Shown here piece by piece: positions 14,910 to 64,000 of a stretch of 64,000 nucleotides of DNA. The notes beneath the pieces were generated by a model. That model saw only the letters and a list, made by a program, of their open reading frames with translations, did not search any database and was not told the origin of the DNA. The stretch is from Chrysomallon squamiferum. Lineage: Eukaryota; Animalia; Mollusca. Both the position numbers and the translations under genes were made by a program. Location of the stretch: the NCBI GenBank assembly GCA_012295275.1, contig CM022669.1, forward strand, positions 4,340,001 to 4,404,000. Direction: 5' to 3'. Numbering within the stretch: the first letter of the stretch is position 1; each line of letters begins with the position of its first letter.

Positions 14910-22225
<7,316 letters not shown>

Positions 22226-23407: not shown

Positions 23408-23543
23408 GAGGGGTGTAGCGTGGGTTACCCGGGCGCAGACATCCTGGGTAGTCTTGTACTCTTGTGGATTAGTCGAATATGTTCGCGGGTTGCTCATTCC
23501 CACGGGTTAGAGGGTGTAGTACACTTGCACTGCTTCGGGGTCA
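23408..23543. mobile_element. hAT-type MITE copy upstream of C (one end deleted)
   Basis: GAGGGGTGTAGCGTGG terminus and internal sequence match the other copies. The right TIR is lost in a deletion. Confidence 0.55.
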
Positions 23544-23653
23544 ATATACACACAAATATAAAATAACTGGATTTGTGCAACGAAGTGGCTAATTAGAAGA
23601 GTCTAGGTTCAGTTTACCTACACATTCAAAACATCACTTAATGCTGATTCAAT

Positions 23654-24358
23654 ATCTGCCTGCATATCTTTTGCCAGTTTCTCTTCCGACAGTTTTTCGT
23701 CAAACAACAATTTGTAAGTTAGTAGACGTTCTGATGGTATCTCAAAGCTTATCTTGACTCTGCCTTCTTTAGATTTGAGCACTTTTCAGTGTGAGACCAG
23801 AAGAAAAATAAGATTCTGAAAACATCGGAACTCGAACAAAATCAGCTTCAGTCCAAGGCGATGGTAACAGCTGCCATTCTTTCTTGGAAGCCAAACACAT
23901 ATAAATAAACTCATCGGGATCGGTGAGAAAGTAAAATTCATTACGATGATAAATGTGCTTTCCTTCTGATTTTTTTTTCCTTTTGCCTGGAACCTTTTCC
24001 TTAGTTTTCTATTAAAGTCCATCGACCCGTGTCGAGGCCTACTACTCCTGTGAATGCCCAGTAAGGGTGGACAATCCTCCATGACTGATCTGCATACACA
24101 GCATTCCAGGTAGAGTTGCGGTTATTGATGTCTGTGTCACCAACTTCAAACCCTGCACCCTTGCATTTGTCTCCGATTATAACACACGGAATGTTGGCTG
24201 CCCTGAGAGAGACAACTGCTGATGAACATTCAGACACAAAATAAGACAGACTGTTAGGCCAAGTGGATGGATGAATGGACGGACGGACGGACAGACAACG
24301 AGACAGACAGTCAGAGACAGACAGACAGGTTGACATACAGACAGATACATAGACAGAC

Positions 24359-28613: not shown

Positions 28614-30109
28614 TTACTCTTCTCTATTCTTTTCACTTATTATGTTGTTACTCTGGAAACAAATAAAAACTAAAATGTTCGAGAGCACAAATAAATAAAT
28701 TAATTAATTAATTAATAATCAAACAAACAAACAAATAAATACAAACATATCAACAAAAAATAAAGAAATAACATGAAACAAAATAAAATAAAACAAAATT
28801 TACTTTACATCTACAATGTTTAATGTTTTCACAAACATATTAGTCTATAGAAGGGACGCTTTTATTCGTTCGACTCTGCAATTCTCTGTGAGTTACTTCC
28901 CTTCAACAGTCATCTTTATAAATGAAACCTAGAAACAGTCTAATCCGCTGCACTCATAACCCTTATATACGAAGAAAAAAAATATATATATATATATATA
29001 TTTTTTCTTTTTTATGATTCTAATATGTGGCAATGAGTTGGTCGTTAATAGCGTTTGATCCATACAACTATGAGACTAAAAATGAACATTTGACACTACA
29101 AATGGTCAAATGAAATTTATTATAATTCCTAGATATTATCTGAACATCATGGACCTTCTTTATCACCATAAAATAATACTGATACAAAACATTTGCACTG
29201 CGTCATTACAGCCTGATATTTTTCTAGATGTACTCTATGCTCTCTATACTTCATTAAAAATTAAGAGTAGATGTCAAAAATAAATATAGTATAGAGTTGG
29301 GTAAAAGCCTCCCCTTAAGGAAAATATTATATATTTTATATCACATTTAGCAACTTTTCCCCGTTTTGAGCAGCGAATATAATTTATGAACTATTCTATT
29401 AGAAATCAAAACAAGTTATTAAATATCAAGTCAATACATCCCTTCCTAACTTCACAGTACTTTGTGAGTACATGACCAATCTTTAACCTAAAACACGAAT
29501 ACAAAATATTTTACGAATCTGTCAAATATTCGAAATTTCATAAAACACTTACATGAGTTAGAAGTGAAGTTTCGTGGTACAGGATGAATCTACCTACGAC
29601 GTCAGTGGAATCTTATGATGTAGATTCTGGTTTCAGTTCATATGTACACTTCGCTAAAAAACAGCGGGCTTTTTATCTCAAGGAGCCCTTTTACCCAACT
29701 CTACCCTAAGACAACAATGAAATATGCGGTGAATATTTAGGCCAGTTATGGGGAAACCCGGACCCGCAGTGTTTTCTGAATGACCAAAGATAGTCTTTAC
29801 GACTGGTGTCGTAACTAGAGCGCGGATGAGACTGATAATCTCTTTTAGTGTTAATATCAAAAACTTACCCAGACGTAAAATGTGCCGGCCCCTGCACTGT
29901 GTTGTCTGACGTTAAAAAGTTGGTACTGGTTCAGCAAACTGTCGGCTCGTTTAGCAGAAGGGATTGACAACCTCACAATATCAAACTCTTTAATAAGTCG
30001 AACAATACTGTCCTTTCCCAGACGTCTCAACAGAGTCTGTACGTACTCCCACTTCTAGAAATATTAAATAAATCATTTCAACATACTCTTAGCCCTCTCT
30101 AGATGCGTT

Positions 30110-30141
<32 letters not shown>

Positions 30142-30675
30142 CATGTGTGTATGCGTGCCTTTTTCGTTTTCTATATGCTATATAAACGTCTGTACAAAAC
30201 ACAGTGTCCAAACTATTGCAACAAAGTAAGAACAATCTCAGTTACAGAACAACGAAAATGAAGCATAACTAAGCTTACCTTCAGTTGTTTTTCTTTTTCT
30301 CCTAGAATGAGATATGTCGCTTTCATCACGTTATGAACTAGACTCTTTGGCCGGTTGTATCTGTGTATTTCAGACACAGTTTGTTGTTTTAGATCGAGTA
30401 TTTTATGCAGAAACAGATTTAGTCTCTTCAGCTGTTCTTGGACTTGGCGAGCTTCATTCATGGTATCTGAGTTGACGATCATCTGTGAAGAGATCGAGTG
30501 CTCGGCGCTGTAAATAGCGTCGTTCAATTCAGCAAGATTTCTTTTCTCCGAGGCCTCTTTCAAACCTTGTGAAAAAAAAAAAAAAAAACTCTGGTCAAGT
30601 CAACATTATATATCTTTTTTCCTTGATCTATCTTTCTTTCAATCTCTGTCTCTGTGTGTGTGTGTGTGTGTGTGT

Positions 30676-30966: not shown

Positions 30967-33900
30967 AGAGAGATAAAGAGACATTCAGCACATTATATTT
31001 ACACATTACTCACGTTTTAGATGTAATTCAACAAGCCTTTCTTTCGCAGCTGTCAGTTCTCCTTCGTCATGCTGCCGAGACATGACAAAATTCAGTACAG
31101 CTTTTTCTAGCTCTTCTATGTCATCACCTTCAGTTGCCTTGATCAGCTTTGTTTTAGCATCCACCATCTGAAAGTTAAATATGTCACTAAAAACTTTTTG
31201 TGTGTGTATAATATTTAACAGTATCTCTCTCTCTCTCTATCTATCTCTCATGTGCAATAACCACACATAAACGCTGCCAAGTACATATATATATATATAT
31301 ATATATATAAATCATATATGTTCTTTATAGACATAGGCATATTTATATGAAAGAATATCTTTCTTTTACTTTAAATAAAGTAATAAACTAAAATATATAG
31401 TAACTATCACTGCACTGTCCTTTGTCTTTGTCCACTTCCTTTAATCACAATAAAAAACAATAAAATTAAAATAAATATTAAAAATAAAATAAAACAGAAA
31501 CTAAAAATAAATTAAGAAAGAAAAAGTATTTACCAAAATAAATAAACACTGCAACCGATCATAAAAAGAAAAAAAACACAAATATGAAAAATAGCCATTT
31601 ACCTCATTCGTTATTGATACATTTGCCCATTCCTTTTCATCAGAAGAAATCAAGTAGTTACAGATGTTTTCAAATTGATCTTGAGAACCCTTCTCTTTGG
31701 CGTTGATTTCCAAGGCATATTCTGGATTACTTGACACGTTTTTGTCTGGCATTGTCACAGTCACAGTGACATTTTCACTCTTTTGCTCCACATTAATAAA
31801 CTCTTCAGTATTCTCTATATGTTTAAGAGCAACCTTAAATTCCAGTTCTTTCATGCTTTTGAACTGAAACTTCTTCACTGAGCCATAGTCCATGATAACA
31901 ATACCGTTTTTGACGGAAGGGTGAGTCAAACCTGCTTCTGCAGCTTTCAAATTGTAGCCGAATCCTATTGCTGGATTTGTTGGGAAAGGATTTGTATTTT
32001 TCCCCACTGAATCACAATCGAGCCTGAAGTTACACAAGCCTTTGTTGATTTCCATCTTATAAATACCTCGTACAGGGAAACGAATGATAAATGATTTTAT
32101 TTTCTCTTCGTTGTTCTGTAACACGTACAAGTCTGCCTGGATGTTATCTGGCAGTTTCTCTTCTGACATTTTTTCGTCAAACAACAACTTGTACGTTAGT
32201 AGCCGTTCTGAAAGCATCTCAAAGCTGATTTTGACTCTACCTTCTTTAGATTTCATCACTCCAATATTTTCACTTTTTAGTGTTATGCCAGAAGAAAAAT
32301 AAGATGCTGAAAACATCGGAACTCGAACAAAATCAGCTTCAGTCCAAGGCGATGGTAACAGCTGCCATTCTGTCTCGGAAGCCATACACATATAAATAAA
32401 CTCATCGGGATCGGTGAGAAAGTAAAATTCATTACGATGATAAATATGCTTTCCTTCTGATTTTTCTTGCTTTTGCCTGGCACCTTTTCCTTCGTTTTCT
32501 ATTAAAGTCCATCGACCCGTGTCGTAGCCTGCTACTGCTGTGAAAGCCCAGTAAGGGTGGACAATCCTCCAGGACTGATCTACATACACAGCATTCCAGG
32601 TAGAGTTGCGGTTACTGATGTCTGTATCGCCAACTTCAAACCCTGCTCTGTATTTGCCTAACACAAGGAATGTTGGCTGCCCTGAGAGAGAAAAATTGCT
32701 GAAACACAGAGACACACCAATAAGACAGACTGTTAGGACAAATAGTTTTAGACAGACCAGATACACAGACAGACTGATAGATAGATAGATAGATAGATAG
32801 ATTATATAGATAGATAGAATTTTGGATGCTCTAAATAAATAAGAACATAGGCAGACAGTGACCGACTGTTTAGATAGATAGGTTGTTTTGATAGAAATCA
32901 ATACATCCTGTATTCTTTAATTCTTTTATTTGCCAGTATTTATATTGCGTTTTTTCAGAATCAACACTTCCTTATATTTCTTTTAATGTAAACTATATGA
33001 TTTAAACAATAACAATGCAGTACATACCTGCAAAGGAGGGCAAAGAATAACGGGTAAAGCCCTTTACGTTTTTTTATTAGTTTCATGTAGCCTCTGGGTG
33101 TGTTTGGGTCGCTGACGCCAGGGTACGACATGTTGTCGATTCTCTGATTTCCCAGCCAAACGAAAATAGATCTAACTTTCTGAAGATCTGTCTTCAAATC
33201 TGAGGTGAGATAGTTTACGAGTGACGTGTAAGTGGAGGCGTCATCTTGCGAAGCCTGTAATAATGATAATAACAGTTATTAAAAGAACAACAGTAACTAT
33301 TACCATCAGCATAGAAGTAGCAACACGATAAAAACCATAATAATGATAAAAGCAACATATATACACAATCATAATATATCAGTACTGACATACGCTCAAT
33401 CACTTTCACATAAAACATACGTGTACCGTAAATCCATATCTTATAAACCAGAGTCTTACGTTCTTTGCTTTGGCTTCGACATCTTGATAATCCTCTATTT
33501 TGAAAATATCTTTCTTCCTGGTTGCTGGTGGTTTTGGCGGTGGATAGCCCGGCTCTGTGTCTGCGACAAAAATCTGTTGAAAAAAAACAAACAACAGATT
33601 CCAGAATTAAACGTTACTTTCGACAAACCATTACATGATAAATATAACTGATGAACTGTTTGTAATCCGGCTGCTGTAAGATATCACTGATATAGGGTGA
33701 GTTTTTTATGGGCAAATGTGTAATATGACTGACATAGTGCATGTGAGATATGTCATATGAAATACTATTGCTATGCTGTATGTAAGATATGTCATATGAA
33801 ACACTGTTGATATAGAATATGTAACAAATGTCACTGGCATGGTTTTTGTAAGATATGTCCTATGTTAATATTATTGCTATAGCATAATGTAATACATCTC

Positions 33901-34268
33901 AGGATATAGTGTATGGTACTGTAAAATATAACTAGTATAATATATACTGTCTGACATTACTAAAGATAAAATTATTCTCTAATAACATCATATTAAATGA
34001 AGAAGACGTCAGCAAATGTGAATCCTCGCAACTTTTCTGTTTGATATATTACCTTCTGTATTATCAACAAAACGTAAATAACAATGTGAAAGTATATGAC
34101 GTGCTATTAGACCATTTGTTCGTCTGTTTTAGAATAAAAAGAAAAAATATAATAATAACGACTGCACCAACACATGCCACTTACTGCATCTATATCAGGA
34201 GTGTCTTCGTCCACAACAGGGGTGACTTCGTTCACAACAGAAGTAGACTTGCTTGCTCCACATCCCAT
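28614..34268 (-). CDS. Paralog E: either intact (~772 aa, via upstream exon-4 acceptor) or a young frameshifted pseudogene
   Basis: e1 34268-34185, e2 33573-33460, e3 33254-33028, e4 ending at 31603, e5 31167-31014, e6 30565-30279, e7 30054-29869, e8 28652-28614. The canonical e4 acceptor (32681) is followed by an 11-nt loss that leads to an early TGA. An upstream acceptor (32830) is in frame with the long ORF 31501-32901. Confidence 0.7.
30682..30973. repeat. Opposed (TC)n and (GA)n microsatellites in intron 5 of E
   Basis: (TC)n at 30682-30725 and (GA)n at 30889-30973. Confidence 0.9.
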
Positions 34269-43097: not shown

Positions 43098-45639
43098 AGG
43101 GGGGATGGGGAGGGCGGGAGAGAGAGTGAGGGAGATAGAGAGAGAGACAGAGAAACAGAGAGAGATAGAAAGAGAGAGAGAGATATAGAAAAAGAGACAG
43201 ATAGAGTGAGAGAGAGAGAGAAAGAGAGAGACACAGAGAGAGAGGGGAGAGAGAAAGAGATTTATCATTTCGATAATTTATTCATTTAGAGCATCCAAAA
43301 TTCCGTGTGTTGTAATCACAGGACATTGGCGATACAGACCTTAATAACGGCAACTCTGCCTGGAATGCTGTGTATGTAGATCAGTCCTGGAGGACTGTCC
43401 ACCCTGACTGGGCTTTCACAGCAGTAGCAGGCTACGACACGGGTCGATGGACGTTAATAGAAAACCAAAGAAAAGGTGCCAGGCAAAAGCAATAAAAATC
43501 GGAAGGAATGCACATTTATTGTCGTAATGAATTTTACTTTCTCACCGATCCTGATGAGTTTATTTATATGTGTATGGCTTCCGAGAAAGAATGGCAGCTG
43601 CTACCATCGCCTTGGACTGAAGCTGATTTTGTTCGAGTTCCGAAGTTTTCAGAATCTTATTTTTCTTCTGGCATAACACTAGTAATTGAAGAATGATGAA
43701 ATCTAAAGAAGGCAGAGTGAAGATCAGCTTTGAGATATCTTCAGAAAGTCTACTAACGTACAAGTTGTTGTTTGACGAAGAAATGTCAGAAGAGAAACTG
43801 CCAAAAGACGTCCAGGCAGACTTGTACGTTTTACAGAACAACGAAGACAAAATAAAATCATTTATCATTCGCTTCCCTGTTCGAGGTATTTATAAGATGG
43901 AAATCAACGACGGTTTGTGTAACTTCAGGCTGGAATGTGATTCAGTGGGGAAAAACACAAATCCTTTCCCAATAAATCCAGCAATAGGATTCGGCTACAA
44001 TTTGAAAGCTGCAGAAGCAGGTTTGACTCAGCCTTCCGTCAGAAACGGTATTGTTATCATGTTTCAAAAGCATGAAAGAACTGGAAATTCAAGTTTTTCT
44101 TAAACATTACTTGAAGGTTGTACAGAATCTTGAAGAGTTTATTAATGTGGAGCAAAAGAGTGAAAATGCCATTGTGACTGTGACAATGCCAGACAAAAAC
44201 GTGTCAAATAATCCAGAATATGCCTTGGAAATCAACGCCACAGAGAAGGGTTCTCTAGATCAATTTGAAAACATTTGTAACTACTTGATTTCTTCTGATC
44301 AAAGGAATGGGCAAATGTATCAACGACGAAGGAGGTAAATGGCTATTCTTCATATTTGTGTTTTTTTCTTTTTATGATTGGTTGCAGTGGTTATTTATTT
44401 TGGTACATACTTGCTTTTTCTTTCTTAATTTAATTTTAGTTTCTGTTTTATTTTGTTTTTAATATTTATTTTAATTTTATTGTTTTTTATTGTGATTAAA
44501 GGAAGTGGACAAAGACAAAGGACAGTGCAGTAATAGTTACTATATATTTTAGTTTATTACTTTATTTAAAGCAAAAGAAAGATATTCATTCATATAAACA
44601 TAATCTTGAGAAAAACATTTAATGATATACATACATGTATGCATGCATATTATTATATAAATAACTATGTGTGTATATGTGTAAGAATGTGTTTGTACTT
44701 CTCAGCGTTAATGTGTGTTTATTTCAGAGAGAGACAGACAGAGAGAAAGAGAGAGAGAGAAAGTGAGTTACATTTTATTCACATATAGTAAACATACAGT
44801 GAGAGAAGGAGACAATTCGACACGTTGATTAGTACATACAGAGTTTGTAATGAGATATTTAACTTTCAGATGGTGGATGCTAAAACAAAGCTGATCAAAG
44901 CAACTGAAGGTGATGACATAGAAGAGCTAGAAAAAGCTGTACGGAATTTTGTCATGTCTCGGCAGCATGATGAAGGACAACTGACAGCTGCGAAAGAAAG
45001 GCTTGTTGAATTACATCTAAAACGTCAGTAATGTGCAAATAGAATCACTCTCTCAGGGTTTTTTTGTTTTCTGTTTTTCACAAGGTCTGAAAGAGGCCTC
45101 GAAGAAAAGAGATCTTGCTGCATTGAACGACGCTATTGACAGCGCCGAGAACTCGATCTATTCAAAGATGATCGTCAACTCAGAGACCATGAATGAAGCT
45201 CGCCAAGTCAAAGAACAGCTGAAGAGACTAAATCTATTTTTTCATGAAATACTCGAACTAAAACAAGAAACTGTTTCTGAAATACACAGATACAACCGGC
45301 CGAAAAGTCTAATTCATGACGTGATGAAAGCGACATATCTCATCCTAGGAGAAAAAGAAAAACAACTGAAGGTAAGCTTAGTCATTGGTCATTTTCGTTG
45401 TTATGTAATTGAGATTGTTCTTACTTTGTTGCAGTAGTTTGGACACTGTGTTTTGTACACACGTTTATATAGCAAATAGATAAAGAAAAAGGCACGGACA
45501 CACATACAAGCGCGCGCAGAAGTCTATTATACATACATACATTTTACTTTCAACTCAGTGCATACATAAATATCTATTTGTATATGTCTCTCTTTTTTAT
45601 GTATATATGAATATATATATATATATACCTATGTGTGTG

Positions 45640-53081: not shown

Positions 53082-53279
53082 ATGGCAGGTGGAGCAAGCA
53101 AGTCTACCCCTGTTGTGAACGAAGTCACCCCTGTTGTGAACGAAGTCACCCCTGTTGTGTACGATGTCACTTCTGTTGTGTACGAAGTCACCCCTGTTGT
53201 GAACGAAGTCACCCCTGTTGTGAACGAAGTCACCCCTGTTGTGAACGAAGTCACCCCTGTTGTGTACGATGTCACTTCT
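53082..53279 (+). pseudogene. Paralog H, exon-1 fragment cut by the satellite array (inverted twin of the 5' end of C)
   Basis: MAGGASKST followed by 8 copies of PVVNEVT-like repeats. It runs directly into the tandem array at ~53280 with no donor site. Upstream 51.6-53.1 kb mirrors 22.2-23.6 kb. Confidence 0.8.
53109..53279 (+). repeat. Coding 21-bp minisatellite (8 units; PVVNEVT) in exon 1 of H
   Basis: CCTGTTGTGAACGAAGTCACC repeated. Confidence 0.92.
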
Positions 53280-53280
53280 C

Positions 53281-56207
53281 TTGTTTTTTTATTATAACAG
53301 AAAATAAGCAAAGTACACAGATAAAAAAAAAAAAAAAAAAACAAATAAAGAACCAACCACGTTGAATTATTAAACGATAGAAGCTCGGCGTTTTCTTCGC
53401 AGGTTCCATTTTTCGGATAATTACCGTACGTCTTGACATTAGTGAATACATCTCACGTAAGGGACATAACTCTAATCTATGTCTGTGAACACATCTCACT
53501 AAAGGGAGATAACTGTAATCGATATAATTTTTACTTTGCTTAGTGAGTACATCTCACGTAAGGGACCTAACTCTAATGTGTTTGTGAGCACATATCACTA
53601 AAACGAGATAATTCTAATTGATCTGATTTTTCTCTTTCCTTAGTATACACAGACACAGACACACACACACAGAAACACACACACACACACACACACAGAA
53701 ACACACACACAGAATCACACACACAGAATCACGCAGCAGAGAAAAAACCTCTGGTACTTAATGCATATACAATTCTAAAAGAAATAAAATTAAAATTCAA
53801 TTAATTAAAAATTGGCAGAGAATTTAAAAACAAATAAAGTTCAGAATATTAACAAAATACAAAAAGAAATAATAAATTCTGATATTAAAAAGTCGAATCT
53901 CTCAAATGACAGATTAAAATATTTTATTTACTGATTTTTTTATTATAACAGAAATAAGCAAAGTACACAGGATAAAACAAAAGAAAAAAGAAACAAATAA
54001 AGAACCACGTTGAATTATTAAAACGATAGAAGCTCGGCGTCTTCGCAGGTTCCATTTTTCGGATAATTACCGTACGTAAGCTTAGTGAATACATCTCACG
54101 TAAGGGACATAACTCTAATCTATGTCTGTGAACACATCTCACTAAAGGGAGATAACTGTAATCGATATAATTTTTACTTTGCTTACATCTCACGTGAGTA
54201 CATCTCACGTAAGGGACCTAACTCTAATGTGTTTAAGCACATATCACAAACGAGAGATAATTCTAATTGATCAAACGAGATAATTCTAATTGATCTGATT
54301 TTTCTCTTTCCTTACACACACAGACACAGACACACACACACAGAACACACACACACACACACACTCACACAGAATCACACACACAGAATCATACGCAGAG
54401 AAAAACCTCTGGTACTTAATGCATATACAATTCTAAAAGAAATAAAATTCAATTAATTAAAAATTGGCAGAGAATTTAAAAACAAACAAAGTTCAGAATA
54501 TTAACAAAATACAAAAAGAAATAATAAATTCTGATATTAAAAAGTCGAATCTCTCAAATGACAGATTAAAATATTTTATTTACTGATTTTTTTTTTATTA
54601 TAACAGAAATAAGCAAAGTACACAGGATAAAACAAAAGAAAAAAGAAACAAATAAAGAACCACGTTGAATTATTAAAACGATAGAAGCTCGGCGTCTTCG
54701 CAGGTTCCATTTTTCGGATAATTACCGTACGTAAGCTTAGTGAATACATCTCACGTAAGGGACATAACTCTAATCTATGTCTGTGAACACATCTCACTAA
54801 AGGGAGATAACTGTAATCGATATAATTTTTACTTTGCTTAGTGAGTACATCTCACGTAAGGGACCTAACTCTAATGTGTTTGTGAGCACATATCACTCAA
54901 ACGAGATAATTCTAATTGATCTGATTTTTCTCTTTCCTTAGTATACACAGACACAGACACACACACATAGAAACACACACACACACTCACACAGAATCAC
55001 ACACACAGAATCATACGCAGAGAAAAACCTCTGGTACTTAATGCATATACAATTCTAAAAGAAATAAAATTCAATTAATTAAAAATTGGCAGAGAATTTA
55101 AAAACAAATAAAGTTCAGAATATTAACAAAATACAAAAAGAAATAATAAATTCTGATATTAAAAAGTCGAATCTCTCAAATGACAGATTAAAATATTTTA
55201 TTTACTGATTTTTTTATTATAACAGAAATAAGCAAAGTACACAGGATAAAACAAAAGAAAAAAGAAACAAATAAAGAACCACGTTGAATTATTAAAACGA
55301 TAGAAGCTCGGCGTCTTCGCAGGTTCCATTTTTCGGATAATTACCGTACGTAAGCTTAGTGAATACATCTCACGTAAGGGACATAACTCTAATCTATGTC
55401 TGTGAACACATCTCACTAAAGGGAGATAACTGTAATCGATATAATTTTTACTTTGCTTAGTGAGTACATCTCACGTAAGGGACCTAACTCTAATGTGTTT
55501 GTGAGCACATATCACTAAAACGAGATAATTCTAATTGATCTGATTTTTCTCTTTCCTTAGTATACACAGACACAGACACACACACATAGAAACACACACA
55601 CACACTCACACAGAATCACACACACAGAATCATACGCAGAGAAAAACCTCTGGTACTTAATGCATATACAATTCTAAAAGAAATAAAATTCAATTAATTA
55701 AAAATTGGCAGAGAATTTAAAAACAAATAAAGTTCAGAATATTAACAAAATACAAAAAGAAATAATAAATTCTGATATTAAAAAGTCGAATCTCTCAAAT
55801 GACAGATTAAAATATTTTATTTACTGATTTTTTTATTATAACAGAAATAAGCAAAGTACACAGGATAAAACAAAAGAAAAAAGAAACAAATAAAGAACCA
55901 CGTTGAATTATTAAAACGATAGAAGCTCGGCGTCTTCGCAGGTTCCATTTTTCGGATAATTACCGTACGTAAGCTTAGTGAATACATCTCACGTAAGGGA
56001 CATAACTCTAATCTATGTCTGTGAACACATCTCACTAAAGGGAGATAACTGTAATCGATATAATTTTTACTTTGCTTAGTGAGTACATCTCACGTAAGGG
56101 ACCTAACTCTAATGTGTTTGTGAGCACATATCACTAAAACGAGATAATTCTAATTGATCTGATTTTTCTCTTTCCTTAGTATACACAGACACACACACAC
56201 ACACACA

Positions 56208-56244
<37 letters not shown>

Positions 56245-56820
56245 AGAATCACACACACAGAATCATACGCAGAGAAAAACCTCTGGTACTTAATGCATAT
56301 ACAATTCTAAAAGAAATAAAATTCAATTAATTAAAAATTGGCAGAGAATTTAAAAACAAATAAAGTTCAGAATATTAACAAAATACAAAAAGAAATAATA
56401 AATTCTGATATTAAAAAGTCGAATCTCTCAAATGACAGATTAAAATATTTTATTTACTTTTTTTTTTTATTATAACAGAAATAAGCAAAGTACACAGGAT
56501 AAAACAAAAGAAAAAAGAAACAAATAAAGAACCACGTTGAATTATTAAAACGATAGAAGCTCGGCGTCTTCGCAGGTTCCATTTTTCGGATAATTACCGT
56601 ACGTAAGCTTAGTGAATACATCTCACGTAAGGGACATAACTCTAATCTATGTCTGTGAACACATCTCACTAAAGGGAGATAACTGTAATCGATATAATTT
56701 TTACTTTGCTTACATCTCACGTAAGGGACCTAACTCTAATGTGTTTGTGAGCACATATCACTCAAACGAGATAATTCTAATTGATCTGATTTTTCTCTTT
56801 CCTTAGTATACACAGACACA

Positions 56821-56863
<43 letters not shown>

Positions 56864-57469
56864 AGAATCACACACACAGAATCATACGCAGAGAAAAACC
56901 TCTGGTACTTAATGCATATACAATTCCAAAAGAAATAAAATATAATTAATTAAAATTTGGCAGAGAATTTAAAAACAAATAAACTTCAGAATATTAACAA
57001 AATACAAAAAGAAATAATAAATTCTGATATTAAAAAGTCGAATCTCTCAAATGACAGATTAAAATATTTTATTTTATATTTTTTTTTTTATTATAACAGA
57101 AATAAGCAAAAAGTACACAGGATAAAAAAAAAAAAAAAAAAGAAACAAATAAAGAACCACGTTGAATTATTAAAACGATAGAAGCTCGGCGTCTTCGCAG
57201 GTTCCATTTTTCGGATAATTACCGTACGTAAGCTTAGTGAATACATCTCACGTAAGGGACATAACTCTAATCTATGTCTGTGAACACATCTCACTAAAGG
57301 GAGATAACTGTAATCGATATAATTTTTACTTTGCTTAGTGAGTACATCTCACGTAAGGGACCTAACTCTAATGTGTTTGTGAGCACATATCACTCAAACG
57401 AGATAATTCTAATTGATCTGATTTTTCTCTTTCCTTAGTATACACAGACACAGAAACAGACACACAGAA

Positions 57470-57502
<33 letters not shown>

Positions 57503-58095
57503 CACACTCACACAGAATCACACACACAAAATCATACGCAGAGAAAAACCTCTGGTACTTAATGCATATACAATTCTAAAAGAAATAAAATTCAATTAAT
57601 TAAAAATTGGCAGAGAATTTAAAAACAAATAAAGTTCAGAATATTAACAAAATACAAAAAGAAATAATAAATTCTGATATTAAAAAGTCGAATCTCTCAA
57701 ATGACAGATTAAAATATTTTATTTACTGATTTTTTTATTATAACAGAAATAAGCAAAGTACACAGGATAAAACAAAAGAAAAAAGAAACAAATAAAGAAC
57801 CACGTTGAATTATTAAAACGATAGAAGCTCGGCGTCTTCGCAGGTTCCATTTTTCGGATAATTACCGTACGTAAGCTTAGTGAATACATCTCACGTAAGG
57901 GACATAACTCTAATCTATGTCTGTGAACACATCTCACTAAAGGGAGATAACTGTAATCGATATAATTTTTACTTTGCTTAGTGAGTACATCTCACGTAAG
58001 GGACCTAACTCTAATGTGTTTGTGAGCACATATCACTCAAACGAGATAATTCTAATTGATCTGATTTTTCTCTTTCCTTAGTATACACAGACACA

Positions 58096-58140
<45 letters not shown>

Positions 58141-58728
58141 AGAATCACACACACAGAATCATACGCAGAGAAAAACCTCTGGTACTTAATGCATATACAA
58201 TTCTAAAAGAAATAAAATTCAATTAATTAAAAATTGGCAGAGAATTTAAAAACAAATAAAGTTCAGAATATTAACAAAATACAAAAAGAAATAATAAATT
58301 CTGATATTAAAAAGTCGAATCTCTCAAATGACAGATTAAAATATTTTATTTACTGATTTTTTTTTTATTATAACAGAAATAAGCAAAGTACACAGGATAA
58401 AACAAAAGAAAAAAGAAACAAATAAAGAACCACGTTGAATTATTAAAACGATAGAAGCTCGGCGTCTTCGCAGGTTCCATTTTTCGGATAATTACCGTAC
58501 GTAAGCTTAGTGAATACATCTCACGTAAGGGACATAACTCTAATCTATGTCTGTGAACACATCTCACTAAAGGGAGATAACTGTAATCGATATAATTTTT
58601 ACTTTGCTTAGTGAGTACATCTCACGTAAGGGACCTAACTCTAATGTGTTTGTGAGCACATATCACTAAAACGAGATAGATAATTCTAATTGATTGATTT
58701 TTTTTTCTCTTTCCTTAGTACAGACACA

Positions 58729-58789
<61 letters not shown>

Positions 58790-59382
58790 ACACACACAGA
58801 ATCATACGCAGAGAAAAACCTCTGGTACTTAATGCATATACAATTCTAAAAGAAATAAAATTCAATTAATTAAAAATTGGCAGAGAATTTAAAAACAAAT
58901 AAAGTTCAGAATATTAACAAAATACAAAAAGAAATAATAAATTCTGATATTAAAAAGTCGAATCTCTCAAATGACAGATTAAAATATTTTATTTATTTTT
59001 TTTTTTTTATTATAACAGAAATAAGCAAAGTACACAGGATAAAACAAAAGAAAAAAGAAACAAATAAAGAACCACGTTGAATTATTAAAACGATAGAAGC
59101 TCGGCGTCTTCGCAGGTTCCATTTTTCGGATAATTACCGTACGTAAGCTTAGTGAATACATCTCACGTAAGGGACATAACTCTAATCTATGTCTGTGAAC
59201 ACATCTCACTAAAGGGAGATAACTGTAATCGATATAATTTTTACTTTGCTTAGTGAGTACATCTCACGTAAGGGACCTAACTCTAATGTGTTTGTGAGCA
59301 CATATCACTCAAACGAGATAATTCTAATTGATCTGATTTTTCTCTTTCCTTAGTATACACAGACACAGACACACACACATAG

Positions 59383-59418
<36 letters not shown>

Positions 59419-60003
59419 TCACACACACAGAATCATACGCAGAGAAAAACCTCTGGTACTTAATGCATATACAATTCTAAAAGAAATAAAATTCAATTAA
59501 TTAAAAATTGGCAGAGAATTTAAAAACAAATAAAGTTCAGAATATTAACAAAATACAAAAAGAAATAATAAATTCTGATATTAAAAAGTCGAATCTCTCA
59601 AATGACAGATTAAAATATTTTATTTACTGTTTTTTTTTTTATTATAACAGAAATAAGCAAAGTACACAGGATAAAAAAAAAAAAAAAAAAAAGAAACAAA
59701 TAAAGAACCACGTTGAATTATTAAAACGATAGAAGCTCGGCGTCTTCGCAGGTTCCATTTTTCGGATAATTACCGTACGTAAGCTTAGTGAATACATCTC
59801 ACGTAAGGGACATAACTCTAATCTATGTCTGTGAACACATCTCACTAAAGGGAGATAACTGTAATCGATATAATTTTTACTTTGCTTAGTGAGTACATCT
59901 CACGTAAGGGACCTAACTCTAATGTGTTTGTGAGCACATATCACTCAAACGAGATAATTCTAATTGATCTGATTTTTCTCTTTCCTTAGTATACACAGAC
60001 ACA

Positions 60004-60054
<51 letters not shown>

Positions 60055-61291
60055 AGAATCACACACACAGAATCATACGCAGAGAAAAACCTCTGGTACT
60101 TAATGCATATACAATTCTAAAAGAAATAAAATTCAATTAATTAAAAATTGGCAGAGAATTTAAAAACAAAGAAACTTCAGAATATTAACAAAATAGAAAA
60201 AGAAATAATAAATTCTGCTATTAAAAAGTCGAATCTCTCAAATGACAGATTAAAATATTTTATTTACTGATTTTTTTATTATAACAGAAATAAGCAAAGT
60301 ACACAGGATAAAACAAAAGAAAAAAGAAACAAATAAAGAACCACGTTGAATTATTAAAACGATAGAAGCTCGGCGTCTTCGCAGGTTCCATTTTTCGGAT
60401 AATTACCGTACGTAAGCTTAGTGAATACATCTCACGTAAGGGACATAACTCTAATCTATGTCTGTGAACACATCTCACTAAAGGGAGATAACTGTAATCG
60501 ATATAATTTTTACTTTGCTTAGTGAGTACATCTCACGTAAGGGACCTAACTCTAATGTGTTTGTGAGCACATATCACTCAAACGAGATAATTCTAATTGA
60601 TCTGATTTTTCTCTTTCCTTAGTATACACAGACACAGACACAGACACACAGAAACACAGACACACACACACACACACACACACACAGAATCACACACACA
60701 GAATCACACACAGAGAAAAACCTCTGGTACTTAATGCATATACAATTCTAAAAAAGAAATAAAATTCAATTAATTAAAAATTGGCAGAGAATTTAAAAAC
60801 AAATAAAGTTCAGAATATTAACAAAATACAAAAAGAAATAATAAATTCTGATATTAAAAAGCCGAATCTCTCAAATGACACATTAAAATATTTTATTTAC
60901 TGATTTTTTTTTTTATTATAACAGAAATAAGCAAAGTACACAGGATAAAACAAAAGAAAAAAGAAACAAATAAAGAACCACGTTGAATTATTAAAACGAT
61001 AGAAGCTCGGCGTCTTCGCAGGTTCCATTTTTCGGATAATTACCGTACGTAAGCTTAGTGAATACATCTCACGTAAGGGACATAACTCTAATCTATGTCT
61101 GTGAACACATCTCACTAAAGGGAGATAACTGTAATCGATATATTTTTTTACTTTGCTTAGTGAGTACATCTCACGTAAGGGACCTAACTCTAATGTGTTT
61201 GTGAGCACATATCACTCAAACGAGATAATTCTAATTGATCTGATTTTTCTCTTTCCTTAGTATACACAGACACAGAAACAGACACACAGAA

Positions 61292-61326
<35 letters not shown>

Positions 61327-63560
61327 CACACTCACACAGAATCACACACACAGAATCATACGCAGAGAAAAACCTCTGGTACTTAATGCATATACAATTC
61401 TAAAAGAAATAAAATTCAATTAATTAAAAATTGGCAGAGAATTTAAAAACAAATAAAGTTCAGAATATTAACAAAATACAAAAAGAAATAATAAATTCTG
61501 ATATTAAAAAGTCGAATCTCTCAAATGACAGATTAAAATATTTTATTTACTGATTTTTTTATTATAACAGAAATAAGCAAAGTACACAGGATAAAACAAA
61601 AGAAAAAAGAAACAAATAAAGAACCACGTTGAATTATTAAAACGATAGAAGCTCGGCGTCTTCGCAGGTTCCATTTTTCGGATAATTACCGTACGTAAGC
61701 TTAGTGAATACATCTCACGTAAGGGACATAACTCTAATCTATGTCTGTGAACACATCTCACTAAAGGGAGATAACTGTAATCGATATAATTTTTACTTTG
61801 CTTAGTGAGTACATCTCACGTAAGGGACCTAACTCTAATGTGTTTGTGAGCACATATCACTAAAACGAGATAATTCTAATTGATCTGATTTTTCTCTTTC
61901 CTTAGTATACACAGACACAGACACACACACATAGAAACACACACACACACTCACACAGAATCACACACACAGAATCATACGCAGAGAAAAACCTCTGGTA
62001 CTTAATGCATATACAATTCTAAAAGAAATAAAATTCAATTAATTAAAAATTGGCAGAGAATTTAAAAACAAATAAAGTTCAGAATATTAACAAAATACAA
62101 AAAGAAATAATAAATTCTGATATTAAAAAGTCGAATCTCTCAAATGACAGATTAAAATATTTTATTTACTGATTTTTTTTTTTTTATTATAACAGAAATA
62201 AGCAAAGTACACAGGATAAAACAAAAGAAAAAAGAAACAAATAAAGAACCACGTTGAATTATTAAAACGATAGAAGCTCGGCGTCTTCGCAGGTTCCATT
62301 TTTCGGATAATTACCGTACGTAAGCTTAGTGAATACATCTCACGTAAGGGACATAACTCTAATCTATGTCTGTGAACACATCTCACTAAAGGGAGATAAC
62401 TGTAATCGATATAATTTTTACTTTGCTTAGTGAGTACATCTCACGTAAGGGACCTAACTCTAATGTGTTTGTGAGCACATATCACTAAAACGAGATAATT
62501 CTAATTGATCTGATTTTTCTCTTTCCTTAGTATACACAGACACAGACACACACACACAGACACACACACACACACACACACACAGAATCACACACACAGA
62601 ATCATACGCAGAGAAAAACCTCTGGTACTTAATGCATATACAATTCTAAAAGAAATAAAATTCAATTAATTAAAAATTGGCAGAGAATTTAAAAACAAAT
62701 AAAGTTCAGAATATTAACAAAATACAAAAAGAAATAATAAATTCTGATATTAAAAAGTCGAATCTCTCAAATGACAGATTAAAATATTTTATTTACTGAT
62801 TTTTTTTTTTATTATAACAGAAATAAGCAAAGTACACAGGATAAAACAAAAGAAAAAAGAAACAAATAAAGAACCACGTTGAATTATTAAAACGATAGAA
62901 GCTCGGCGTCTTCGCAGGTTCCATTTTTCGGATAATTACCGTACGTAAGCTTAGTGAATACATCTCACGTAAGGGACATAACTCTAATCTATGTCTGTGA
63001 ACACATCTCACTAAAGGGAGATAACTGTAATCGATATAATTTTTACTTTGCTTAGTGAGTACATCTCACGTAAGGGACCTAACTCTAATGTGTTTGTGAG
63101 CACATATCACTCAAACGAGATAATTCTAATTGATCTGATTTTTCTCTTTCCTTAGTATACACAGACACAGACACACACACACAGAAACACACACACACAC
63201 ACACACAGAATCACACACACAGAATCATACGCAGAGAAAAACCTCTGGTACTTAATGCATATACAATTCTAAAAGAAATAAAATTCAATTAATTAAAAAT
63301 TGGCAGAGAATTTAAAAACAAATAAAGTTCAGAATATTAACAAAATACAAAAAGAAATAATAAATTCTGATATTAAAAAGTCGAATCTCTCAAATGACAG
63401 ATTAAAATATTTTATTTACTGATTTTTTTTTTTATTATAACAGAAATAAGCAAAGTACACAGGATAAAACAAAAGAAAAAAGAAACAAATAAAGAACCAC
63501 GTTGAATTATTAAAACGATAGAAGTTCGGCGTCTTCGCAGGTTCCATTTTTCGGATAATT
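53281..63560 (+). repeat. Tandem satellite array, ~16 units of ~619-645 bp, Helitron/HINE-like unit
   Basis: A near-identical unit recurs (the spurious MRCVHRHR ORF starts at 54797, 55416, 56035, 57294, 57937, 58567, 59209, 59845, 60478, 61761, 62386, 63011). The unit has internal CATCTCAC..AAGGGACATAACTC subrepeats, a variable (CA)n/(GACA)n tract, a HindIII site in every unit except the first, and an A-rich spacer. Confidence 0.95.
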
Positions 63561-64000
63561 CTGTGTTTCTGTTTTTCGGTGTTTCTGTGTGTGTGTGTCT
63601 GTGTCTGTGTATACTAAGGAAAGAGAAAAATCAGATCAATTAGAATTATCTCGTTTTAGTGATATGTGCTCACAAACACATTAGAGTTAGGTCCCTTACG
63701 TGAGATGTACTCACTAAGCAAAGTAAAAATTATATCGATTACAGTTATCTCCCTTTAGTGAGATGTGTTCACAGACATAGATTAGAGTTATGTCCCTTAC
63801 GTGAGATGTATTCACTAAGCTTACGTACGGTAATTATCCGAAAAATGGAACCTGCGAAGACGCCGAGCTTCTATCGTTTTAATAATTCAACGTGGTTCTT
63901 TATTTGTTTCTTTTTTCTTTTGTTTTATCCTGTATACTTTGCTTATTTCTGTTATAATAAAAAAATCAGTAAATAAAATATTTTAATGTGTCATTTGAGA
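63561..64000 (-). repeat. Same satellite unit in inverted orientation
   Basis: After ...TTTTCGGATAATT the sequence switches to (TG)n-ATACTAAGGAAAGAG..., the reverse complement of the unit. The MRCVHRHR ORF now lies on + at 63758. Confidence 0.9.

Follow-up and report, generated by a model that had tools for sequence, protein, structure and literature searches.

A recombinant exon-4 junction with two stacked acceptors in one copy of a KY/hillarin-related tandem gene array: probably a loss-of-function allele

Tandem gene arrays undergo birth-and-death evolution through unequal crossover and gene conversion. The array described here is related to the hillarin/LTD-1/kyphoscoliosis peptidase (KY) family, of which hillarin/LTD-1 in the narrow sense carries an N-terminal LIM domain (also present in one source's name for it). 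Catalytically dead members of the family are already known, Cyk3 being the example in the available text of PMC3718969. For an altered intron-exon boundary, a comparable system is the canine Merle allele of PMEL, in which use of the upstream acceptor adds repeat and intron in frame (162 nt, 52 aa) and results in an aberrant protein, according to the available text of PMC6091007.

The gene array and its family

The stretch of DNA analyzed, referred to as the window, is 64,000 nt long and AT-rich (GC 0.28-0.40), and carries within 1-53 kb seven related gene copies, A to G, which are ~90% identical to one another. The reading frame is open in B (728 aa), in C (850 aa), and, as far as the window reaches, in the partial copy A, while D, F, and G, three of the seven, are broken by stops or frameshifts. 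The closest named proteins are hillarin-like ones of gastropods, led by "hillarin-like isoform X2" from Gigantopelta aegis (59% identical), which makes a gastropod host probable. A likeness to the hillarin/LTD-1/KY family is provided by the Ig-like KY domains: PF23265 matches the exon-4 frame of copy E in two stretches (E=7.5e-25, 88 bits against a cutoff of 27). The transglutaminase-like core, PF01841, gives no match to individual exons of E or C, the domain being split by intron 3; homologue P0002, which aligns at 41-44%, clears it (24.7 bits, cutoff 23). In contrast to KY, whose catalytic residues are Cys225, His267, and Asp282, all three are replaced in the window copies; the Cys-His-Asp triad is present in the vertebrate KY rows of the alignment and replaced in the gastropod rows shown. 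Copy E also differs from hillarin/LTD-1 in the narrow sense in having no N-terminal LIM domain, none being found in its exons 1-3 (141 aa, 2 Cys) by inspection, with Pfam run on exon 3 only. A third difference from KY/hillarin is that close homologues of the window copies carry a C-terminal dynein-stalk-like region.

This C-terminus (E exons 6-7, window 29869-30565, with the same exons in B, C, and F) resembles the stalk/microtubule-binding region of axonemal dynein heavy chains, and many homologues extend across it. Residues 462-562 of P0002 match DNAH6 (E=2.5e-6), E exon 6 alone gives a weak match to DNAH2 (E=0.46), and Pfam on the C-terminal region found no domain. The top Foldseek match of the model of another homologue, P0013, is the ciliary central-pair chain 7n6g_6E (FAP246; E=3e-16, TM 0.39, rmsd 25). 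Judging from sequence and model, a transglutaminase that has lost catalysis and carries a dynein-like microtubule-binding tail might be a protein of cilia; hillarin is unmentioned among the literature matches listed beside this idea. The conserved dynein-stalk-like C-terminus may merit more attention than the E allele itself.

We also noticed several other features of the array. Exon 1 contains a 21-nt coding tandem repeat, which in C is expanded to a 471-nt exon (window 21755-22225). A transcript from X1, one of the RNA runs described below, lacks 21 nt at 34222, and a repeat resembling the exon-1 one at 53082-53280 runs into a tandem satellite that occupies 53281-64000 (units of ~635 bp that are ~95% identical; an inversion lies near 63560). 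Copies D and G are both truncated at base 550 of exon 4 (23500-23655 and 51477), past which they enter similar non-coding sequence in opposite orientations. Copy F has its own 23-nt deletion inside the first 60 nt of exon 4 (43290-43345), flanked by short TTG repeats and overlapping the position of the E lesion described below. The intron 2 donor of copy C (20644), GTTAGA, is weaker than those of the other copies, and C may be poorly spliced because of it.

The exon-4 junction of copy E

Copy E consists of eight exons on the minus strand, which are given below with the parts of its intron 3 and exon-4 start.

34185..34268, minus strand: exon 1 (ATG; MGCG start), spliced to exon 2 in the X1 RNA contig
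33460..33573, minus strand: exon 2, in the X1 contig with 0 mismatches
33028..33254, minus strand: exon 3, phase 2; its end encodes the helix of the transglutaminase core (106-116 in the homologue model); X1 contig with 1 mismatch
32843..33027, minus strand: 5′ part of intron 3, A/B-like at its start and then C-like by local alignment
32817..32842, minus strand: upstream F/C-type acceptor (exon start 32830) and 14-nt exon-4 stub, equal to F at 25/26 nt
32776..32818, minus strand: TATC microsatellite, 10.5 units by TRF, with the putative crossover at its 5′ edge
32704..32760, minus strand: the 19 codons of highest hydrophobicity in the possible insert (mean Kyte-Doolittle 2.56)
32682..32745, minus strand: G/D-type intron-3 end by alignment; it includes a branch-like CTAAC, a cryptic AG that is in frame (exon start 32698), and the orthologous one (exon start 32681)
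32647..32659, minus strand: 13 nt replacing 24 nt of the paralogues by alignment, a net 11-nt loss and frameshift
32636..32638, minus strand: premature TGA reached by translation from acceptor 32681
31603..32681, minus strand: exon 4, with the rest of the transglutaminase-like core and two Ig-like KY domains (PF23265); donor confirmed by RNA loose ends
31014..31167, minus strand: exon 5, from sequence
30279..30565, minus strand: exon 6, from sequence
29869..30054, minus strand: exon 7, from sequence
29452..29487, minus strand: exon 8, coding part up to the stop

An initial annotation of this DNA had described two stacked exon-4 acceptors in copy E, and both are present with the coordinates and motifs it gave. 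Its assignment of the upstream one to the F/C type also holds, the intron-3/exon-4 junction of copy F being reproduced over 32817-32842; the 20-nt exact E/F match at this acceptor was reached by none of 2000 block shuffles (best 12). A TATC/TCTG tract does lie between the acceptors, although the true microsatellite covers only 43 nt and not the ~135 nt proposed. The downstream acceptor at 32681, described as of A/B/D type, scores best locally against G, followed by D, A, and B (113, 103, 97, and 88). Local alignments resolve intron 3 of E into a mosaic of C-like, F-like, and G/D-like parts, in agreement with the recombinant insertion that had been suggested.

The 11-nt loss reported just inside exon 4 was confirmed by alignment with A, B, D, and G, and can also be aligned as an 8-nt and a 3-nt deletion with substitutions. 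As had been predicted, translation through 32681 ends early, giving a product of 156 aa whose TGA lies 1033 nt before the end of exon 4. Use of the orthologous acceptor leads to a frameshift and a premature stop far upstream of the last junction. The route through 32830 is open as claimed (771 aa over 8 exons, including a 53-aa insert), and the remaining seven exons are indeed intact, being open with GT..AG ends, so that E has no further disabling lesion beyond its exon-4 start. A third AG that restores the frame was correctly noted, with the exon start at 32647 and not at ~32648; we found further ones at 32914, 32773, and 32698, plus 32614, and in total 6 of the 22 AGs in 33020-32600 restore the frame. 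Frame agreement is a 1-in-3 event, one reason why a compensating frameshift is unsupported.

The upstream AG follows a pyrimidine tract (14/19 pyrimidines) and opens an in-frame, stop-free extension, as expected of an exonised segment, and the possible insert contains a hydrophobic stretch of at least 19 aa by Kyte-Doolittle mean only. The description of the 53-aa segment as exonised microsatellite is correct as to its hydrophobicity, but its best 19-mer comes mostly from the G/D-like intron end. Exon 4, in its shifted frame, encodes the final 8 of the 53 residues, which means that the segment replaces conserved residues and is not purely additive.

Open hydrophobic frames turned out to be common in the introns of this array. 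We took 1308 overlapping 147-nt windows from the third introns of A, B, D, and G; 608 of them were stop-free, and 589 of these 608 (97%) were hydrophobic (best 19-residue Kyte-Doolittle mean, KD19, of at least 1.6). Reading the final 150 intron bases of A, B, C, D, and G in the frame of the insert likewise meets no stop, with KD19 between 1.68 and 2.29, and T makes up 65 of the 149 nt of insert DNA. Two results count against reading the insert as a by-product of composition: its KD19 of 2.56 exceeds that of every one of the 608 open control windows, and dinucleotide shuffles, which destroy repeat structure, left the insert open in 230 of 3000 cases, with only 14 of those reaching 2.56. The open hydrophobic frame in E is nevertheless most likely a compositional by-product of T/C-rich DNA and not a new membrane domain. 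T/C-rich mollusc introns offer open frames that look like transmembrane segments about half the time, and a gene predictor or a reader can falsely "rescue" a broken gene copy with a membrane insert.

Structural constraint, selection, and RNA

The structural argument is based on the AlphaFold model of P0013 (69 sequences, mean pLDDT 95), in which the junction sits between helix 106-116 and strand 121-128, with pLDDT ~97 there. The span from Cys to Cys in this region is 8 residues in 58 of 60 homologue rows and 10 and 18 in the others; 58 of 62 homologues have the second Cys. (Two outliers of a separate pattern search were false matches, their actual spacing being normal.) None of the 60 aligned homologues has an insert comparable to that of E, the largest being +10. 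Whichever acceptor restores the frame in E, the first core strand is lost together with the near-invariant Cys. By motif and spacing this lost cysteine is the putative equivalent of human KY Cys243. According to the available text of PMC13434911, human KY Cys236 and Cys243 have the same spacing as the two cysteines of the homologues, Cys243 is predicted to be part of the core sheet's first strand, and Cys243Arg, a variant of uncertain significance, is associated with lowered protein and myopathy. At window 33028 the phase-2 intron that follows the Leu-Cys codons falls in the codon at which human KY exon 8 ends in that source (PMC13434911). In the shifted frame of E, Pro and Gly recur with the spacing they have in the lost strand, and an E-private change at 32666 turns Arg into Leu in this frame.

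E-private changes comprise 33 nonsynonymous and 9 synonymous ones against 49 and 26 in B and C together (p=0.15), and broken copy F is likewise not distinguishable, which makes this a weak test. Pairwise dN/dS for E is 0.39-0.67 against 0.32-0.86 over all 21 pairs. Among the seven window copies, neither dN/dS nor private-change counts separated the broken from the open ones.

Five sequence runs cover the region (X1-X5), four on record as RNA from one study and X5 with no type on record; X3 and X4 are small-share runs, and X4 gave no contig on the window. Both contigs that bridge the exon 3-exon 4 junction (2/2) show a normal-length 48-nt exon-4 start, with the insert absent. The X1 contig (739 nt) is spliced across introns 1-3; it agrees with E exon 2 without any mismatch and shows a single one in exon 3. 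After exon 3 it contains 48 non-matching letters, where E has 37, and rejoins the window at 32644; as 48 equals 37 plus 11, its exon-4 start is of normal length. The X3 contig has the same 48-letter joint, with only 18 nt on the exon-3 side and 16 mismatches downstream, and is probably a paralogue transcript. A loose end in X2 is of the intact type.

Across 32453-32644 there are 12 differences between the X1 contig and window E in 192 nt. The rate elsewhere is lower, 8 of 1257 (Fisher p=1e-6); this second figure combines exons 2-3 of the contig with four further contigs from X1, of which one is identical for 397 nt, and omits one second contig over a duplicate span (4 mismatches). Because the mismatches are concentrated in 32453-32644, the window's E allele would appear to contain a foreign tract of ~230 exon-4 bases, and the X1 contig is probably from an intact, expressed E allele. 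Rare paths are lost from Logan contigs, which may also be chimeric among 90%-identical paralogues; as these can share more than 31 nt across the junction, a chimeric X1 contig is possible.

Contig depth is 0 at 32713-32813 in X1, X2, and X3 and at 32648-33015 in X1, X2, and X4, which with contigs is no proof of absence; 32759-32819 was skipped as repeat in mapping. X5 covers 29 of 30 bins, introns included, with depth 0 at 32744-32807 and 32856-32983; among the pieces listed none covers the 11-nt loss, and the loose ends are of the intact type. An X5 joint between 32742 and 33004, with 4 mismatches in 49 nt, is probably from a paralogue. The same run gave a depth-30 contig over ~32820-32849 and a depth-30 contig of 131 nt that reaches 32644 at its position 76. 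If these two are one, with a joint at the repeat dropped in mapping, the upstream acceptor would be followed directly by a normal exon 4, which is the expected ancestral state. The RNA runs apparently carry an E allele other than the window's.

Competing explanations and known systems

We consider window copy E to be probably a loss-of-function allele that arose when two paralogues recombined out of register. In this scenario a crossover would have led from an E gene whose acceptor was of F/C type, 14 nt into exon 4, into the intron-3 TATC tract of a G/D-like copy, and the crossover or conversion would have brought in the donor's intron end, acceptor, and first ~230 nt of exon 4. The 11-nt loss may have come with a dead donor or arisen at the junction itself. 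Splicing at 32681 would produce a decay-prone message coding for 156 aa, and splicing at 32830, 32773, 32698, or 32647 would produce in-frame messages without the first core strand and its cysteine, the proteins from which would probably misfold. The mosaic intron, the normal-length E-like transcript in another sample, the loop constraint, and the three broken copies suggest this reading. Against it, E has no second disabling lesion, its private changes are not significantly relaxed, and the RNA is from one study and apparently from another allele. Acceptor 32830 may well be used, being homologous to an acceptor in open copy C; an insert-bearing 32830 message may exist in carriers, although we lean slightly against it, and its existence would not imply a working protein.

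It is unlikely that E is functional through the cryptic AG 17 nt upstream of the old one (exon start 32698), which would yield 727 aa, compared with 728 for B, with a frame-shifted stretch replacing the strand. This route is open, and in frame by virtue of the 17 nt, instead of 16, that separate the two AGs in E; its product preserves the Pro and Gly spacing, a CTAAC motif lies 35 nt upstream, and E-specific changes cluster nearby, with extra pyrimidines and a neighbouring AG lost. On a crude acceptor matrix, trained on 32 partly homologous sites in which the A/B/D/G type outnumbers the C/F type, 32698 has the second-highest score among the AGs in 33000-32600 (3.9, tied with 32773). However, the old AG at 32681 is intact and scores higher (6.1), the near-invariant Cys is missing from the product, and the replacement strand obtains 3.0 bits on the family profile, against 24-31 for A, B, and C (10 vs 9 columns). 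The bridging RNA contigs also have 48 unplaced letters, where E spliced at 32698 should leave 54. With a net gain of 2 aa, this acceptor would still be a likelier rescue than the insert. That the segment is an assembly chimera, or a consensus error in a collapsed tandem array, seems quite improbable: the array is highly repetitive, with copies ~90% identical, and the bridging contigs have a normal junction, yet the inserted part differs from each window copy by several substitutions and indels, the 11-nt loss lies outside any homopolymer, and the flanks are continuous with no N in the window.

The initial annotation suggested that a compensating frameshift may have helped create a de novo membrane-spanning insert, a claim left unsupported by the chance nature of the frame, the open control introns, the normal-length RNA, and the fixed loop. 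Dominant use of 32830, with the 53-aa segment translated into a stable membrane-inserted protein, is in our view very unlikely, despite the open 771-aa frame, a true paralogous acceptor nearer to the donor, a KD19 above all control windows, and the reported ease with which T-rich non-coding DNA encodes transmembrane-like segments (available text of PMC7005711). Such an insert would split the core between helix and first strand in the homologue model, nothing like it occurs in the 60 aligned homologues, and a single crossing would leave the halves of one domain on opposite sides of the membrane. The bridging RNA contigs are of normal length, and 32830 scores -0.6 on the crude matrix, whose training set is poorer in C/F-type sites. 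It is hardly to be expected that decay clears the 32681 message in carriers and leaves the 32830 message to turn a soluble pseudo-transglutaminase into a stable membrane-inserted protein that is still polymorphic. If true, a conserved fold would have gained a membrane segment in one step, a rare event and one testable between two alleles.

Read as a probable loss-of-function allele, copy E is a commonplace mark of turnover in a gene array, though one that can be read clearly, and it adds a new case to a known type of event; among the literature matches listed, no title concerns this locus. It resembles the Merle allele of PMEL in that an insertion at an intron-exon boundary supplies a second, upstream acceptor. 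As described in the available text of PMC6091007, the Merle insertion is a SINE, the original acceptor still yields normal protein, and use of the upstream site is demonstrated, whereas in E the added acceptor is paralogous, the orthologous route is frameshifted, and upstream use is predicted from sequence. The T-rich, hydrophobic insert of E recalls the transmembrane segments from thymine-rich DNA reported by Vakirlis 2020; those are, in the available text of PMC7005711, stand-alone ORFs with expression and fitness data, while in E a candidate segment read from the DNA interrupts a folded domain. With seven ~90%-identical copies, three of them broken, and mosaic ancestry along E, the locus resembles other birth-and-death arrays, and differs in that the E breakpoint left a 14-nt exon stub and with it two stacked acceptors, a less common scar.
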